Virus record (IMG/VR): IMGVR_UViG_3300027816_000062
Length of the DNA stretch: 64,000 nt
From: an uncultured virus (IMG/VR IMGVR_UViG_3300027816_000062)
Lineage: Duplodnaviria > Heunggongvirae > Uroviricota > Caudoviricetes
Direction: 5' to 3' (one strand)
Position 1 is the stretch's first letter. Every line of letters begins with the position of its first letter. Under the pieces are notes generated by a model. That model made no database searches. It was not told the DNA's origin and saw only the letters and a list, made by a program, of their open reading frames with translations. Below, one piece after another: positions 1 to 53,818 of the stretch. Both the position numbers and the translations under genes were made by a program.

Positions 1-28
1 GAAATACAAAAGAAAAGGGATTTTTTAT

Positions 29-62
29 AATGATCGTGGCGCATAATCTCAGAAAGTTATAA
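29..62 (+). repeat. Dyad repeat A copy 1
   Basis: AATGATCGTGGCGCATAATCTCAGAAAGTTATAA; further copies at 621, 1416, 2418, 2783, 3548, 4083, 4686. Confidence 0.85.
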
Positions 63-67
63 AGAAA

Positions 68-84
68 GCCCCGTTTTCAGGGGC
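68..84 (-). terminator. Intrinsic terminator downstream of 104..565
   Basis: GCCCC-gttttca-GGGGC hairpin flanked by A/T runs. Confidence 0.65.
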
Positions 85-103
85 ATTTCTTTGAAGTCAG
101 TTA

Positions 104-565
104 TTAGAACCCAAAAGACGGGGTTTTCAGCAAGGTGGGCAGTTCTTGAATCGGCACCAACTTCACCTTCCCGTTGGTCTTTTGGTGGACCAAATCCGCC
201 CACTTTTCATCCAAGTGCGTGTTAGCGTTGTAAACGATGAGCCCGCCGTCGTAATTCCCGATAATGCTCATCAATCGGGCCACATTGTTCTTCACCATAG
301 ACCCGATGTAAAGTTGCTGGGTGGCGAAGATTTCAACGGCAATTTTCTTGCCGTTAGTCACCACTTCAAGGTCAATGGTGTGTTCAAATCCAGGCCGCTC
401 AACGACCGCTTGCGGAACAACCATACCCTTTCCAACGACGGCCTCGAAGGCCTGTTGGACAACAAGTTCGAGCTGAGAGTGCTCGTTGCTGGTGGAGCGG
501 AAAAGCTTTAGGGGCCAATTGTCGGGGATTTGAAGAAGGGCGACGATGGTTGCAATCTCAGTCAT
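104..565 (-). CDS. Hypothetical protein, PD-(D/E)XK/Mrr-like fold possible
   Basis: Own promoter (582-592) and GGAGAGG RBS; IDLEV...KIAVEIF and GGLIVY resemble a restriction-endonuclease-like core, with the catalytic Lys absent. Confidence 0.6.
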   Translation of the reverse strand: MTEIATIVALLQIPDNWPLKLFRSTSNEHSQLELVVQQAFEAVVGKGMVVPQAVVERPGFEHTIDLEVVTNGKKIAVEIFATQQLYIGSMVKNNVARLMSIIGNYDGGLIVYNANTHLDEKWADLVHQKTNGKVKLVPIQELPTLLKTPSFGF

Positions 566-620
566 GATTGTTTTCCTCTCCTTATATATCAGATTGGGCT
601 ACGAAAGAAAGAGGATTTTT

Positions 621-650
621 TATGACTTTCTGCGATTGTGTGACACAATT
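621..650 (-). repeat. Dyad repeat A copy 2 (inverted)
   Basis: Reverse complement AATTGTGTCACACAATCGCAGAAAGTCATA. Confidence 0.75.
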
Positions 651-667
651 CAATGCAAGCCAAATAT

Positions 668-882
668 AAACAAAATCCCTGGCCACGGAGCCTCATGCTC
701 ATGCGCGACCAGGGTGCCGTCAGTTTTTGGATAATCTCTATACTGTTTGCAACCAATATAGAACCACGTAATCGCGTCCTGAGACTGACCGTTGCATTTT
801 CACGCTCTGCAACTAGAGGGGAAGCGGATACTCTTTGGTGTGCAGTCCACTTCTCAGCACTAGCGAGGTTGAGGCCTCGTTC
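668..882 (-). ncRNA. Putative structured ncRNA 1 (~215 nt)
   Basis: Promoter 886-896 with no credible ORF; stems CGAGG/CCUCG, GAAGUGGA/UCCGCUUC, GUUGCA/UGCAAC, GUCAGU/ACUGAC, UCUAUAUUG/CAGUAUAGA; terminal CCCUGGUCGCG/CGUGGCCAGGG hairpin followed by a U-rich tail. Confidence 0.65.
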
Positions 883-970
883 TTCTTATATATCCGATTA
901 GGCCAATGTAAAAAGGGGATTGTTTATAAAAAAACCCCCGCATTTTCAAACACAATCGGATATATAAAAT

Positions 971-1369
971 ATGACCGAAGTCTTTGGACAGACCACAGTC
1001 GCCGAGGCACTGCACTCGTCAGTTCACGAAGTCGCAAATCTCATTCTTGACAAAGGTTACCAAATCTTTACAGCTGACTGCCGCCCCGACATTCACTTCG
1101 CATGGCCCAATCGTGACTTTTACTTCACTGACGGGAAGCGCGTTGGATATTGCCAGTATGACAATCTCAATGGACTTGTATTTTGTCAAGTGTTGAAGGG
1201 TCATGGGTTTGGGAATGTCTACGATTATAAAAGCCCCCTGAGCGATTTAGTAGAAAAGACCCTAAACGAAATGCATGAACGACAATATCAAGACTTTGCA
1301 GAGTTTTTGGAATACAGAAAGCAAATTGGTGTACTGTATGAAGTGAAGTCTTTTGAAGTGAAGTTGTAA
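971..1369 (+). CDS. Hypothetical protein (leaderless)
   Basis: ATG 3 nt after CGGATATATAA; terminator hairpin 1373-1395. Confidence 0.8.
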   Translation: MTEVFGQTTVAEALHSSVHEVANLILDKGYQIFTADCRPDIHFAWPNRDFYFTDGKRVGYCQYDNLNGLVFCQVLKGHGFGNVYDYKSPLSDLVEKTLNEMHERQYQDFAEFLEYRKQIGVLYEVKSFEVKL

Positions 1370-1372
1370 ATC

Positions 1373-1395
1373 TCAGGGGCAAAATAAGCCCTTGA
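1373..1395 (+). terminator. Terminator hairpin
   Basis: TCAGGGGC-aaaataa-GCCCTTGA followed by T-rich sequence. Confidence 0.6.
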
Positions 1396-1415
1396 TATTT
1401 ACTTTTATAACCAAA

Positions 1416-1452
1416 ATGATCGTGCCACACAATCGTAGAAAGTTATAAAAAA
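1416..1452 (+). repeat. Dyad repeat A copy 3 (between two convergent terminators)
   Basis: AATGATCGTGCCACACAATCGTAGAAAGTTATAAAAA; no adjacent promoter. Confidence 0.85.
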
Positions 1453-1472
1453 GACTAGGGCAAGCCCTAGTC
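1453..1472 (-). terminator. Terminator hairpin
   Basis: GACTAGGG-caag-CCCTAGTC preceded by an A-run (U-tract on the minus strand). Confidence 0.7.
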
Positions 1473-1655
1473 CAAATCCTCAAGAAGTTCAGCGTCGCCT
1501 TCATCCATCTCGTTGTCAGAATACCATCGAGAAAATGGGATACTGGCTTTGAAATCTTCCCATGCTTGCCCCAATTCATCTGCTGAATTTACAGAGAATG
1601 ATGCCGTATAAGCGGCACTACTGTCTTTATCACAAGCCCGAAAGATTCCAGTCAT
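1467..1655 (-). CDS. Small acidic hypothetical protein (leaderless)
   Basis: ATG 3 nt after promoter core 1659-1669; C-terminus DNEMDEGDAELLEDLD. Confidence 0.75.
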   Translation of the reverse strand: MTGIFRACDKDSSAAYTASFSVNSADELGQAWEDFKASIPFSRWYSDNEMDEGDAELLEDLD

Positions 1656-1695
1656 GCCTTATATATCCGATTGGGACAAAACAAACGGGGGATTT

Positions 1696-2091
1696 TTAGA
1701 TTTGACTCTCTCGAACAGGAATCCAGTTCTTTTGACGTTCAACTCTTTGGCCAAACTTACCAACCGTGGAAATCAACTCACGAAGTGAAGCGTATCCCTT
1801 CTCTCGCTCATTGCCCTCGACAATCCCGTAAAACAGGAAGTCATGAGCCTCGGACTGGCGGGCAGTCGAATCTTCGGGGTGAATCATCACACCATTTTCG
1901 TCCACGGGGCTGCCCTCGATTATAAACCATCGCCAAGTAGGAGCAACAAAGAACAGTTTCAAAACCACCATCGGATTCGGATTCGAGTCTTGAGAGTAGA
2001 GCGGAGGAAGAATGTCCAAAATCTCATCGGGGAGCAAGTGAGAAGCCTGCTTCATGAGTTCAGAGTAGGAAAGTTCAGCGGTGGTGGACAT
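1696..2091 (-). CDS. DUF2958-like protein
   Basis: LPPLYSQD...VVLKLF...WRWFIIEG...LFYGIVEG..EKGYASLREL pattern; own promoter and GAGG RBS. Confidence 0.75.
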   Translation of the reverse strand: MSTTAELSYSELMKQASHLLPDEILDILPPLYSQDSNPNPMVVLKLFFVAPTWRWFIIEGSPVDENGVMIHPEDSTARQSEAHDFLFYGIVEGNEREKGYASLRELISTVGKFGQRVERQKNWIPVRESQI

Positions 2092-2146
2092 TTTCTGTTA
2101 ACCTCTGTCTTATATATCCGATTAGAATACGAAAGAAAGGGGTTTT

Positions 2147-2371
2147 TTATAATGAGCTTGGCCTATACTCACGGACCACAGGTGCATCATAGACATCGTT
2201 GGAAATGTCACTCTGAAGGTCACCACAATCCATTATTTTGCTGCACTTATCAAAAAAAGATTTATCAATGCTTTCACCAAGAAGTTCAGCACACAAAGCC
2301 GCGACCTGAAAGTTGTATTCGCTCGGAACACCAGATTCAGCCATGAGCTTTAGGTTTCGCATTTTATCCAT
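2147..2371 (-). CDS. Hypothetical protein (leaderless)
   Basis: ATG 4 nt after variant promoter core 2376-2386. Confidence 0.7.
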   Translation of the reverse strand: MDKMRNLKLMAESGVPSEYNFQVAALCAELLGESIDKSFFDKCSKIMDCGDLQSDISNDVYDAPVVREYRPSSL

Positions 2372-2417
2372 ATTTTCATATATCCGATTAGAACACGAAA
2401 AACAAGGGTTTTTTTAT

Positions 2418-2453
2418 AATGATCGTGTCACACAATCGTAGAAAGCCATAAAG
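2418..2453 (+). repeat. Dyad repeat A copy 4
   Basis: AATGATCGTGTCACACAATCGTAGAAAGCCATAAAG. Confidence 0.85.
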
Positions 2454-2739
2454 AAAAAGACCCGTCCATCCATGACGGGCCTTTCTTCCTCTTCTTTTTG
2501 TACTTGTATTTTTTTATTCTGGATTTTTGATAGAGTGTGACTTGGGAAACCCAAACAAGATACAAATGAAAATGGTTAATTACTCCATCCTCATAATCTC
2601 TTGCATCTGATATACGCCCATCGTATACTTCGACACCGCTAAGTTTCAAGACAACGCGCCCGCCTTGCAAGGGACTCGAACCCAAGCTTCGATGTTAAAC
2701 GTTTCTCAGATTGTGAAACTTAATTCACTATCACACTCT
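2452..2739 (-). ncRNA. Putative structured ncRNA 2 (~210-nt folded core, A-rich tail and terminator) with T-loop motif
   Basis: Predicted 5' end (2739) coincides with a 9-bp closing helix (2731-2739 pairs with 2532-2540); 9-bp helix 2714-2722/2640-2648; GGGUUCGAGUCCC T-arm at 2671-2683; further hairpins; terminator 2459-2481. Confidence 0.75.
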
Positions 2740-2782
2740 TCTTTATATATCCGATTAGAGCCATGCAAAAAGGGGATTTTTT

Positions 2783-2820
2783 AATGATCGTGGCGCACAA
2801 TCGTAGAAAGTCATAAAAAA
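2783..2820 (+). repeat. Dyad repeat A copy 5
   Basis: AATGATCGTGGCGCACAATCGTAGAAAGTCATAAAAAA. Confidence 0.85.
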
Positions 2821-2847
2821 GACGGATGCTCATATTGAGCATCCAAT

Positions 2848-3048
2848 TTAGAGTCTGCGGTATACCGTTACCCCATTGCGATTATGAGACTTCATATAGC
2901 CTAGATTTTCCAGTTTTTCAAGTCTCTCAGCCAAAATCACATCATCAAAAGACACTTTAAGGGACAATTGATAGAGCGTTTTTCGCTCGTTGGTGCCACC
3001 GAATTGTCTCAGAATGGCATGGTCGTATGCGGTCAGATTCTTATCCAT
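2848..3048 (-). CDS. Small winged-helix-like DNA-binding protein
   Basis: LT..D..IL...TLYQLS...LAERLEKLENLGYM...VYRR is typical of wHTH; translationally coupled to the upstream gene (TAATG). Confidence 0.65.
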   Translation of the reverse strand: MDKNLTAYDHAILRQFGGTNERKTLYQLSLKVSFDDVILAERLEKLENLGYMKSHNRNGVTVYRRL

Positions 3049-3266
3049 TAGGACACTCGCTCAAGCCGAATCACACCCGCATCATCGAGTTGCATAAGTG
3101 CTGGGCAAACGACGTAAGACCTATTGCAGTAATAGCCGTCAGCAGGAAATGCAACACAATCCCCATGAACATCATGGTTTTGTTCGCGCCAAGGCATCAT
3201 ATCCATGCCTTTCAGAAGTTCCTTGATGGCTTGCTTGAGAATGTCATTTTCTTCTTGAACCGTCAT
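3048..3266 (-). CDS. Hypothetical protein (leaderless)
   Basis: ATG 3 nt after promoter core 3270-3280. Confidence 0.75.
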   Translation of the reverse strand: MTVQEENDILKQAIKELLKGMDMMPWREQNHDVHGDCVAFPADGYYCNRSYVVCPALMQLDDAGVIRLERVS

Positions 3267-3324
3267 ATCTTATATATCCGATTAGACCACGAAAGAAAGG
3301 GGATTTTTAATCAACGGCGTAAAC

Positions 3325-3504
3325 AGAAAAGTTTAGCCCCAACAAATAATTGTTGGGGCTAACGACATGCCTATCTTGTCTTGGTTTTTGAGTTTTCAGT
3401 TACACTTTCTTTCTCATGCTGGTAAGGTTCGTCCAGCTACTATAAGGGCTACAGGGCCTGGTCATCGAGCACAATCTGAGTCTCGCGCTTTCCTCAGTCT
3501 TGTT
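3325..3504 (-). ncRNA. Putative ncRNA 3 (~180 nt)
   Basis: Promoter 3508-3518 (its region is identical over ~50 bp to that of ncRNA 2); only a 21-codon ORF without RBS; hairpins AGCGCGA/UUGUGCU and GCUGG/CCAGC; A-rich tail; strong terminator 3333-3362. Confidence 0.55.
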
Positions 3505-3547
3505 ACTTTATATATCCGATTAGAGCCATGCAAAAAGGGGATTTTTT

Positions 3548-3583
3548 AATGATCGTGCCACATGATCACGGAAAGTCATAAAG
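3548..3583 (+). repeat. Dyad repeat A copy 6
   Basis: AATGATCGTGCCACATGATCACGGAAAGTCATAAAG. Confidence 0.75.
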
Positions 3584-3618
3584 AAAGACAGATAACTTGT
3601 ATCTGCCTTTCCAAGTTT

Positions 3619-4082: not shown

Positions 4083-4118
4083 AATGATCGTGCCACATAA
4101 AAACAGAAAGCCATAAAA
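4083..4118 (+). repeat. Dyad repeat A copy 7 (between divergent promoters)
   Basis: AATGATCGTGCCACATAAAAACAGAAAGCCATAAAA. Confidence 0.7.
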
Positions 4119-4165
4119 AATCCCCTTTCTGCATGGCTCCAATCGAATATATAAAGAGAGGAACA

Positions 4166-4648
4166 ATGACTACTGAACAAGTCGCCGCCGCCCTCGCCAC
4201 CAAGCGCAAGGGAACAATATTCACCCTTCGCGTTGCACGTCCCGCCAAACTTCGCGCTGGTTCGCGAGATATGGATATTGTCAAGGCTTCCGTTATGCAA
4301 GGCATGGCGAACACTGACTATGCCAGCCGTGGCCCCGTTCGCGAAGCCGTGGCCCTGGGAGAACGTGATGCCCCTGCCCTGCCCAAGCATATTGAAAAGA
4401 CATTCACGGAAAACGACGTGAAGTTTTGGAAAGGCCACAATGGCGAAATCTACTTGCCCGTTTGCCTTACGGGGAATCATGCCGAAGTCACCTGGCTTCA
4501 GGATGGCGAGGAAGTCAGCCTGGACGAAATCAAGGACCATCTGCTTGCTTCCGAATATGCAAGCCGCACCGATAAGGATGACCTTGCAGAACGCGGCCAA
4601 GTGCCCTTTATCGGCGTAAATGTCAAGCACATCGAATCGGTAAACTAA
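4166..4648 (+). CDS. Hypothetical protein
   Basis: Promoter 4144-4154, GAGG RBS, ATG at 4166; terminator AGGGG-cgcaag-CCCCT plus T-run at ~4666-4688. Confidence 0.8.
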   Translation: MTTEQVAAALATKRKGTIFTLRVARPAKLRAGSRDMDIVKASVMQGMANTDYASRGPVREAVALGERDAPALPKHIEKTFTENDVKFWKGHNGEIYLPVCLTGNHAEVTWLQDGEEVSLDEIKDHLLASEYASRTDKDDLAERGQVPFIGVNVKHIESVN

Positions 4649-6133: not shown

Positions 6134-6670
6134 ATGTTTAAAATAGAAAGTCATTTATCTAAGTTGGCCGAGCATTTTTCTCGGCGCGTTCACAGTGAGA
6201 CGGGCTGCACTTATGATGGTGTTGCTTATGACAAGCATTTGGATCATGTTTATGAAGTTTATTATAGATATTCTTATTTGCTTGATGATTCTGTTAAGAC
6301 TTTCGTAGAGTGTGGAATTTGGCTTCATGATGTGATGGAAGACTGTCGTATTTCTTACGAGGAGTTATCTATTATGTTTGGTGTTGAAGTTGCTGATTTG
6401 GTGTATGCGTTGACGAATGAGTTGGGTAAAACTCGATCTGATATTGTGAAGCGTACATATCCGAAAATCCGCGATCATGGTGATTTGGCTATTTTCGTAA
6501 AGCTTTGTGATCGTATTGCGAATACAGAGGCTTCTTTACGTGATGGTAATGAAAAGTACCGATCATTATATTTTCTTGAGTATTTTTATTTTAAGCAAGC
6601 TTTAAAGACTGATGCTTGGGATATCATGTGGCTACATTTGGATTCTTTGCATACGAGGCTTTGCGAATAA
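6134..6670 (+). CDS. HD-domain hydrolase, SpoT/Mesh1-like
   Basis: Y..HL..V, WLHDVMED, FG.EVADLV.ALT, VKLCDRIAN motifs. Confidence 0.8.
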   Translation: MFKIESHLSKLAEHFSRRVHSETGCTYDGVAYDKHLDHVYEVYYRYSYLLDDSVKTFVECGIWLHDVMEDCRISYEELSIMFGVEVADLVYALTNELGKTRSDIVKRTYPKIRDHGDLAIFVKLCDRIANTEASLRDGNEKYRSLYFLEYFYFKQALKTDAWDIMWLHLDSLHTRLCE

Positions 6671-6673
6671 TTT

Positions 6674-7219
6674 ATGCGTTATTTTTTTGACACTGAGTTT
6701 TTCGAAGACGGCAAGACTATTGATTTAATTTCCATTGGTGTTGTTGCTGAAGATGGCCGCACCTTTTACGCAATTTCTTCTGAATTTGATGTTGATCGTG
6801 TATTAGATGATCCGTGGATGCGCGATCATGTTTGGTCTTTTATCAAGGATGATTACGAGCATGGAAATACTTTAAGCCGCGAGGAAATAGCTGTTAAGTT
6901 TTTAGATTTCGTTGCTCCTCACCATCACTGGGATATTTTGCATATGAATATTCTGCCATTTGATTCCCCTTATGATTCGGAGTTATGGGGATATTACTGT
7001 GCTTATGATTGGGTGGCTGTTCGCCAACTATATGGCAAGATGATTAACGGTCCACGAGGATTACCTCATTATTGCAATGATATTATGCAATATCGCGGCA
7101 AGTTGGGTGAGATTGCTTTGCCTCGCATACCCGAAAAGGATCGGCATCATGCTTTAGCAGATGCTGAAGAAGTAAAGCTGATGTTCGAATATTTGCGTGA
7201 AATTGAGGCGAATAAATAA
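6674..7219 (+). CDS. 3'-5' exoribonuclease, Rv2179c/RNase AS-like (DEDDh)
   Basis: YFFDTEF...DLISIGVV.EDGR.FYA, AYDWV, HHALADA. Confidence 0.85.
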   Translation: MRYFFDTEFFEDGKTIDLISIGVVAEDGRTFYAISSEFDVDRVLDDPWMRDHVWSFIKDDYEHGNTLSREEIAVKFLDFVAPHHHWDILHMNILPFDSPYDSELWGYYCAYDWVAVRQLYGKMINGPRGLPHYCNDIMQYRGKLGEIALPRIPEKDRHHALADAEEVKLMFEYLREIEANK

Positions 7220-53242: not shown

Positions 53243-53818
53243 TTGTCTTTAATAAGGCAAGGAAGGAACGAAATAAACAACAACAATAATAATCGCAAAT
53301 CGCGGCGAGAGCCGCCTCCGAACATTAATGAGCGTCTTCTCCGATTTGGAGAAATCAGAGTCATTAATGCAGATGGTGATCAAATAGGTATAATGACGTC
53401 AAGAAAGGCGCTAGACTTGGCCTTGGAAGATGGCCTTGACTTGATTTTAATTGCTGAGTCTGCAAAGCCTCCTGTATGCAAAATTGCCGATTATGGTAAG
53501 CATAAATACATTGAGGCGAAGCGCAAGAAAACAAGCAACAGTAAAAAACCTCAAGAAACCAAGAGTCTTAAAATTAGCCCGAGAATTTCTGATCACGATT
53601 TAGGTATTACGGCTAAAAAAGCCTCTAACTTTTTGGAGCATGGAGATAAAGTTAGACTAATGTGTTTATTCAAGGCCCGTGAGCTTTCGCACCCAGCGCT
53701 TGGAAAAGAAAGACTGGCAAAGCTTATTGATTGTCTTTCCAGCTCTGCAATACCCGAGGGTGAGCCTTTGTTGGAAGGCAAAGTAATGGCCGTGGTTTTG
53801 CGGCCCAAAGATAATTAA
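53243..53818 (+). CDS. infC: Translation initiation factor IF-3
   Basis: INE.....IRVI..DG.QIGI, LDLI.I...AKPPVCKI.DYGK.KY, HD...K, GDKV; start codon uncertain. Confidence 0.95.
   Translation: MSLIRQGRNEINNNNNNRKSRREPPPNINERLLRFGEIRVINADGDQIGIMTSRKALDLALEDGLDLILIAESAKPPVCKIADYGKHKYIEAKRKKTSNSKKPQETKSLKISPRISDHDLGITAKKASNFLEHGDKVRLMCLFKARELSHPALGKERLAKLIDCLSSSAIPEGEPLLEGKVMAVVLRPKDN

Follow-up and report, generated by a model that had tools for sequence, protein, structure and literature searches.

Anti-defence proteins are sought in the early arrays of lytic phages, and gene callers pass over those of their cassettes that are free of open reading frames (ORFs). Functional RNAs in such ORF-free slots, if they exist, would be a class of phage effectors that is currently overlooked. 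Among described arrays, the promoter-early stem-loop (PeSL) cassettes of T4-type phages consist of repeated terminator/promoter elements flanking ORFan genes (PMC2839356, PMC4122927). In Kayvirus (phage K), PMC11598898 describes the abundant, ORF-free lncRNA1 and lncRNA2 as well as early units of small genes with a suggested part in host takeover. The known phage small RNAs covered in PMC12197685 use antisense pairing or RNA-binding proteins such as Hfq. A precedent for action through shape is pseudo-ToxI of phage PhiTE, an RNA mimic by which a phage neutralises a host defence protein (PMC3594212).

In this study, we analyse positions 668-882, minus strand, of a 64,000-nucleotide stretch of virus DNA (the window, to which positions refer unless a contig is named). 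Its sequence suggests that this segment is probably a functional non-coding RNA gene of no described family. As in PeSL arrays, a repeated promoter and a terminator stem-loop flank single cargo units in a variable region. In contrast to PeSL cassettes, the cargo is here an RNA and not an ORF, an operator-like palindrome is added, and the promoter is mostly leaderless and away from the sigma-70 consensus, so that the element at 886-925 is not a strong sigma-70-like early promoter. With Kayvirus the locus shares early small-gene units and an ORF-free phage region giving an RNA (here predicted). The Kayvirus lncRNAs, however, are about 530 nt long, lie upstream of tRNA genes, are conserved in the genus and were observed by RNA-seq, whereas ours is a predicted 215-nt orphan. 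Unlike pseudo-ToxI, it contains no tandem repeats, and no likeness to a host antitoxin was found in it. We describe a PeSL-like leaderless array of a huge freshwater phage that carries a probable RNA cargo of no described family. If this is true, a repeated promoter would be a simple route to such RNAs with exact 5' ends. The RNA is at present one orphan with modest comparative support, and its value is that of a well-bounded candidate for testing.

Genomic context of the locus

The window comprises bases 62,001-126,000 of a virus record 135,991 bases long. Around the RNA, 6,079 bases are 100% identical to a segment of the 378,848-base record G001, a 379-kb phage, and the region is present in 20 sequencing runs, all of DNA and labelled as freshwater or fungus metagenomes. 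The phage encodes its own DNA polymerase III alpha, a sigma-70-like factor and ribonucleotide reductase. It also encodes IF3, tRNAs and tmRNA; translation genes of this kind are typical of huge phages (PMC7162821). IF3 lies at window 53243-53818, the tmRNA at L423 6065-6422 and a group I intron at L002 8116-8319, in a phage whose early genes are leaderless. Related terminases were found on at least 171 viral stretches, and the best matches of the terminase among isolates show 25-27% identity, none of them being T4. Core genes use Shine-Dalgarno (SD) motifs, with GGAG at 29 of 168 starts as compared to 5.2 expected. For both ORFs that adjoin the RNA, a protein relative search returned relatives only from the same phage, and the protein clusters include at least one 18.8-kb contig of another strain on which both genes are present.

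The promoter and its cassette array

The first-pass annotation had placed a promoter pointing into 668-882, and this promoter is borne out by the core AATCGGATATATAA on the minus strand with its upstream AATCCCC box (Table 1). The window has 13 copies of the core where 0.21 would be expected, and the phage contig has 54 copies of the motif AAAATCCC..ATCGGATATATAA. Most of these copies (47 of 54) open an ORF of at least 30 aa, 39 leaderless and 8 leadered; the other seven, including the one at 899-886, are ORF-free. A sigma-70 scan made no call at 886-925, where the motif is AATCCCC..ATCGGATATATAA. Since the start codon of most leaderless cassettes sits exactly 4 nt past the promoter core, cassette geometry predicts that transcription of the RNA starts at 882. 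On its other side the RNA cassette is bounded by the operator-like repeat (649-616), followed by the promoter of the next cassette. Imperfect palindromes stand between terminator and promoter in many cassettes (window 29-69, 616-649, 1415-1455, 2418-2458 and others) and are candidate operators or recombination sites.

Table 1. Features in and around the predicted RNA (window positions)
Feature	Position	Strand	Details
Repeated phage promoter	886..925	-	AATCCCC box 921-915; core AATCGGATATATAA 899-886
P1, 5' hairpin	864..879	-	879-875 with 868-864; loop CCUCAA; pair probability 0.84
Four-way junction	714..860	-	MFE; closed by P2 (860-856/718-714)
P3, P4 within the four-way junction	853-846/828-821; 813-808/796-791	-	MFE
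Arm P5	719..789	-	789-784/724-719; 4x4 internal loop; pair probabilities 0.90-0.95
P5 three-way junction	hairpins 776-765 and 763-736	-	loop GUUGCAAA in hairpin 763-736
3' hairpin and U-rich tract	660..714	-	11-bp stem 714-704/687-677; cap 700-688; probability 0.99
Operator-like imperfect palindrome	616..649	.	repeat families D5/D9; opens next cassette; outer bound of RNA
Next cassette	104..595	-	own promoter core 595-582; 153-aa ORF 565-104

Coding potential

A 19-codon ORF had been given as the only ATG-initiated frame of the segment. This ORF exists (ATG at 797), but the ATGs at 702 and 696 open a frame as well. Both belong to a 98-codon stop-free frame (885-589) that lacks a start at its 5' end and continues through the next promoter, in register with the leaderless position. 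At that position the RNA cassette has no start codon, its only ATGs being the three named. Neither the 98-codon frame nor an 82-aa ORF on the plus strand matched Pfam or PHROG. Codon-usage scores of the open frames of the RNA range from -0.05 to -0.07, as compared to 0.001 to 0.204 for the 10 array ORFs tested, so that none of the three candidate frames reaches even the lowest array ORF.

It is quite improbable that the transcript is a structured mRNA for the 19-codon peptide, resembling a type I toxin message with its start hidden in P4. The ATG does lie inside a stem, pairing between the two ends of the RNA has a probability of 0.45, and the ORF region is the same in a second allele (described below), which does not contradict this idea. 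The ORF, however, has no clear SD sequence and a codon score of -0.073, and its peptide is not strongly hydrophobic. Moreover, the second allele gains a 5' AUG whose 21-codon frame is dead in the reference allele (examined by hand), so the two alleles have no 5' peptide in common.

Predicted secondary structure

For 668-882, the minus strand has a folding energy of -76.5 kcal/mol and a z of -3.25, matched by 1 of 200 shuffles. On the plus strand z is -1.14, and 25 of 200 shuffles do as well. All helices named in the first-pass annotation were recovered, most with pair probabilities of 0.84-1.0, GUUGCA/UGCAAC being weaker at 0.42. Several details did not survive. Almost the whole length had been said to pair; the paired fraction of 0.60 equals the mean of 100 shuffles. 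G-U pairs were thought to favour the minus strand, yet the minimum free energy (MFE) fold of either strand has 8 of them. The proposed long-range CUGAGA/UCUCAG pairing has pair probabilities of 0.003-0.008 and would cost 3.4 kcal/mol to force; with a probability below 0.01, and with CUGAGA destroyed in the second allele, it was rejected. The three RNAs for which the motif CUGAG(A/G)A had been reported do carry it within 40 nt of the 5' end, but the other four ORF-free cassettes lack it. Its chance is 0.005-0.009 for three given sequences and 0.23 for any three of seven; this latter value, and the change of its first two bases in the second allele, led us to reject it as a shared motif. Kissing between the 5' and 3' loops (4 bp) is no more than an idea, as it was equalled or beaten by 61 of 300 shuffles.

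The 3' hairpin with its U-rich tract is likely the terminator and would put the 3' end at about 668-660. A terminator scan made no call for it, presumably because the length of the loop region exceeds the limit of the scan. This terminator-like hairpin supplies much of the folding score. The z-score depends on the boundaries, being -0.98 for 720-882 and -2.38 for 714-882, and it is -1.72 for a 215-nt window moved 3' to end in the operator-like element. Outside the terminator, 714-860 has a z of -2.84, and arm P5 alone (719-789, bounds picked from the fold) one of -3.33. P2, which closes the four-way junction, has a pair probability of only 0.16; its rival is the centroid helix 864-860/816-812. 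Over the first 200 nt, three of the seven ORF-free cassettes have a z of -2.5 or lower, against two of the 47 coding ones (20 shuffles each). Among 15 cassette ends tested, two from coding cassettes reach z -3.28 and -3.12 through their terminators. Folding by itself is thus no proof of an RNA gene, since the paired fraction is at shuffle level, z varies with the boundaries and coding cassettes score as well.

A second allele

We compared alleles over 1-3600, where two contig sets covered the region and two raw-read runs gave nothing. A contig from run X19 (depth 7.55 of 22) carries a second allele over 800-980. Across the 5' 53 nt (882-830) it differs from the reference by 13 substitutions and two 1-nt deletions. 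Five of the changes fall in P1-P3 and pairing is kept in all five: 879 and 864 change together from C-G to U-A, a compensatory change in P1 that leaves the loop the same; 849 and 856 turn G-U into G-C; and 857 turns C-G into U-G. Among random sets of five transitions in 23 paired places, with apical P3 (844-830) excluded, pairing was kept in 3.4% of 33,649 cases, and pairing plus a two-sided change in 2.1%; P2 had been picked over the alternative fold after the variant was seen. The changes at 857 and 856 are compatible with P2, whereas the one at 861 breaks the rival helix. Two changes, including 861, are at positions unpaired in the MFE fold. The remaining six substitutions and both deletions lie in apical P3 and break a predicted 3-bp extension. 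Arm P5 does not vary between the two alleles.

The long frames do not survive in this allele, because it is two bases shorter overall and has gained a stop at codon 3. By hand count, 3 of 13 changes fall on third positions in either long frame of the RNA, against 5 of 6 in the ORF 971-1369. The promoter core is identical in the two alleles, and spacer bases differ. As to the recombinational gain, loss or swapping of cargo that characterises PeSL cassettes, contig joints in this comparison fall at repeats and may be assembly effects. The variant gives modest support, structure-keeping and frame-breaking, from two alleles and for the 5' quarter of the RNA.

These data also bear on whether the locus is an empty cassette, i.e. 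a promoter and a terminator around decayed cargo, whose RNA has no function. Such a remnant would explain why so much of the folding signal comes from the 3' hairpin, why the paired fraction equals that of shuffles, why the 98-codon stop-free frame starts in register with the leaderless position and why GenBank phages, viral and metagenome contigs and 21 other phage records yielded no homologue. We consider it unlikely: the core-helix changes in the variant all preserve pairing and the promoter core is kept, the sub-domains outside the terminator fold well, and the long frame matches nothing in Pfam or PHROG, scores as non-coding and meets a stop at codon 3 in the variant. The first-pass reading of a promoter-driven, non-coding structured RNA thus remains the best one, carried by cassette geometry, codon scores and the variant and without the shared motif, the long-range pairing and the near-complete pairing that had been part of it.

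Homologues and RNA families

Rfam 15 gave no match in the window at the gathering threshold, and the 24 matches that it gave at E <= 10 all lie outside the RNA. A blastn search of GenBank phages returned 11 records with one 32-nt chance match. In viral contigs, a gapped pattern hit 102 loci, of which only L021 is a true match, identical to the RNA; a promoter pattern hit 20 loci, all from one record; and three further patterns hit at least 149 loci, 3 of them self, the best of 100 scored reaching 14 bits. A pattern search of metagenome contigs found 13 loci (four identical copies and nine unrelated), and a search of genome contigs nothing relevant to the RNA. A single-sequence covariance model recovered only the RNA itself among 22 phage records, mostly fragments (0 of 21 others), and had no match in 398 kb from four relatives; a one-sequence model is insensitive, so these blanks do not prove absence. 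In the literature covered we found no description of the RNA. PMC10690425, on viral candidate RNAs, may list it; a motif search in the part of its supplements that was covered found nothing.

In the distant relative G003 there is a separate leaderless array with 44 promoter copies, whose promoter contains TATAAT. Two of its cassettes are ORF-free and folded from promoter to terminator (L258 22-410, z -3.28, and 2164-2325, z -3.24); their sequences are unrelated to our RNA and gave no Rfam match. Their presence suggests that cassettes with RNA cargo are a recurrent feature of this phage group.

It is very improbable that the RNA serves a phage enzyme (TnpB/Cas12f, reverse transcriptase or Ro60) as guide or template, or that it is a small ribozyme. 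G001 does encode three TnpB/Cas12f-like proteins, and helix P4 is reminiscent of Cas12f repeat ends. The TnpB genes, however, have ordinary element ends of their own, none resembling the RNA, and no guide target was found in the genome. Reverse transcriptase (PF00078), which a retron or DGR template RNA would need as its cognate enzyme, and TROVE (PF05731) were each found in 0 of 4 records and neither in G001. The sequence lacks the T-loop of the tRNA-like domain of a Y RNA or YrlA, though a Ro60 partner could come from the host. The Rfam search at E <= 10 included ribozymes and gave no match. By eye, the RNA did not fit the hammerhead, HDV, hairpin, twister or pistol cores or the TPP riboswitch. 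No CRISPR-spaced repeats were found.

Three TnpB/Cas12f-like genes lie on L237, L239 and L241 of G001. Two have typical element-end hairpins, and the one on L241 is divergent.

Possible role of the RNA

Transcription from 882 to the 3' hairpin would yield an untranslated, branched RNA of about 215 nt, presumably early in infection by analogy with PeSL and terminal-repeat arrays. The RNA would then be one interchangeable 'gene' of a host-takeover array. We tentatively propose that this early, PeSL-like cassette cargo may act through its shape, presenting itself to a host RNA-binding protein as a decoy or ligand, and we give this mechanism about half the confidence given to a functional non-coding RNA. 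The RNA might sequester a defence nuclease or toxin, or a translation regulator, in parallel to the role thought for the small ORFan proteins of such arrays. The decoy role is drawn from context and the exclusion of other roles. Shape-based action fits best with a branched fold, conserved helices and a free apical loop among early ORFan cassettes. Phage-genome matches of at least 12 nt to the RNA number 9 as compared to 3-10 in shuffles, which favours shape over antisense, and no long antisense pairing within the phage genome was seen.

Antisense action seeded from a loop is rather unlikely, in either of two forms: 755-747 would repress the start of the next gene, or CCUC would mask SD sites of host or phage and so favour leaderless messages. 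For the first form, the sole 9-nt perfect complement among 215 phage start regions is the adjacent downstream gene (555-547, codons 4-7), the duplex reaches -17.4 kcal/mol when extended, and a further segment of the RNA, 790-779, also pairs with this target. The nearest Atlas structures of its 153-aa product include PD-(D/E)XK and restriction-type nucleases (TM 0.64-0.74), but the AlphaFold model is poor (pLDDT 52) and its PDB search ambiguous. Against this form, the loop target was found only after several other ideas, and the adjacent gene ranks 32 of 215 with opening cost, 190 by cofolding gain and 16 by raw duplex. Two other array RNAs match 10 and 6 start regions at 9 nt or more, so such matches are common.

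The second form is consistent with the CCUC at 874, which is predicted to be unpaired (0.96-0.99) and is the same in the variant. It recalls two small RNAs with unpaired, pyrimidine-rich loops able to pair with SD-like sequences: RsaE of S. aureus, which works via C-rich unpaired motifs (PMC2790875), and cuckoo (PMC4615179). Nevertheless, the motif is UCCC in RsaE and CCUC here; cuckoo RNAs need 2-4 adjacent hairpins each with CCUCCUCCC, whereas the loop motif here is only CCUC, in one of six MFE loops. The pairing energy of the CCUC loop with SD-like 8-mers is -6.5 to -7.1 kcal/mol, which makes weak seeds, and core genes of the phage itself use SD motifs.

Returning to a folded RNA acting on the host, a wider generalisation can be drawn, which we regard as doubtful: huge lake phages may load their swappable early arrays with RNA effectors too, and this RNA would represent a new folded anti-host class, delivered as a plug-in cassette, either as a decoy for a defence or translation protein or as an antitoxin restraining the neighbouring nuclease-fold gene.

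Other cassettes and repeats of the array

The window has two further ORF-free cassettes on the minus strand. That at 2525-2739 (z -4.28, 9-bp terminal stem) contains a T-loop arm (GGUUCGAGUCC), a closed acceptor-like stem and a D-loop-like hairpin in permuted order; we take these tRNA-like parts to be reminiscent of YrlA-type tRNA mimics. It had no Rfam score, and Ro60 was not found in G001. The other, at 3320-3504, has a z of -3.14, largely from its terminator hairpin. Paralogy of our RNA with other ORF-free cassettes was rejected, as the best partner, the RNA starting at 2739, was equalled by 31 of 500 shuffles. On the plus strand of L004, a degenerate tRNA-like sequence at 4089-4170 stands under a promoter and was detected by neither ARAGORN nor Rfam. 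At 6657-6775 of the same strand, a structured, GC-rich leader (z only -1.08) separates a cassette promoter from an ORF led by an SD.

The word TGCA occurs six times in window 540-882, as often as in 0.9% of 343-nt windows, partly due to the RNA helices. A word similar to that of the operator-like palindrome occurs about 76 times in G003, and G005 has a different, perfect palindrome.
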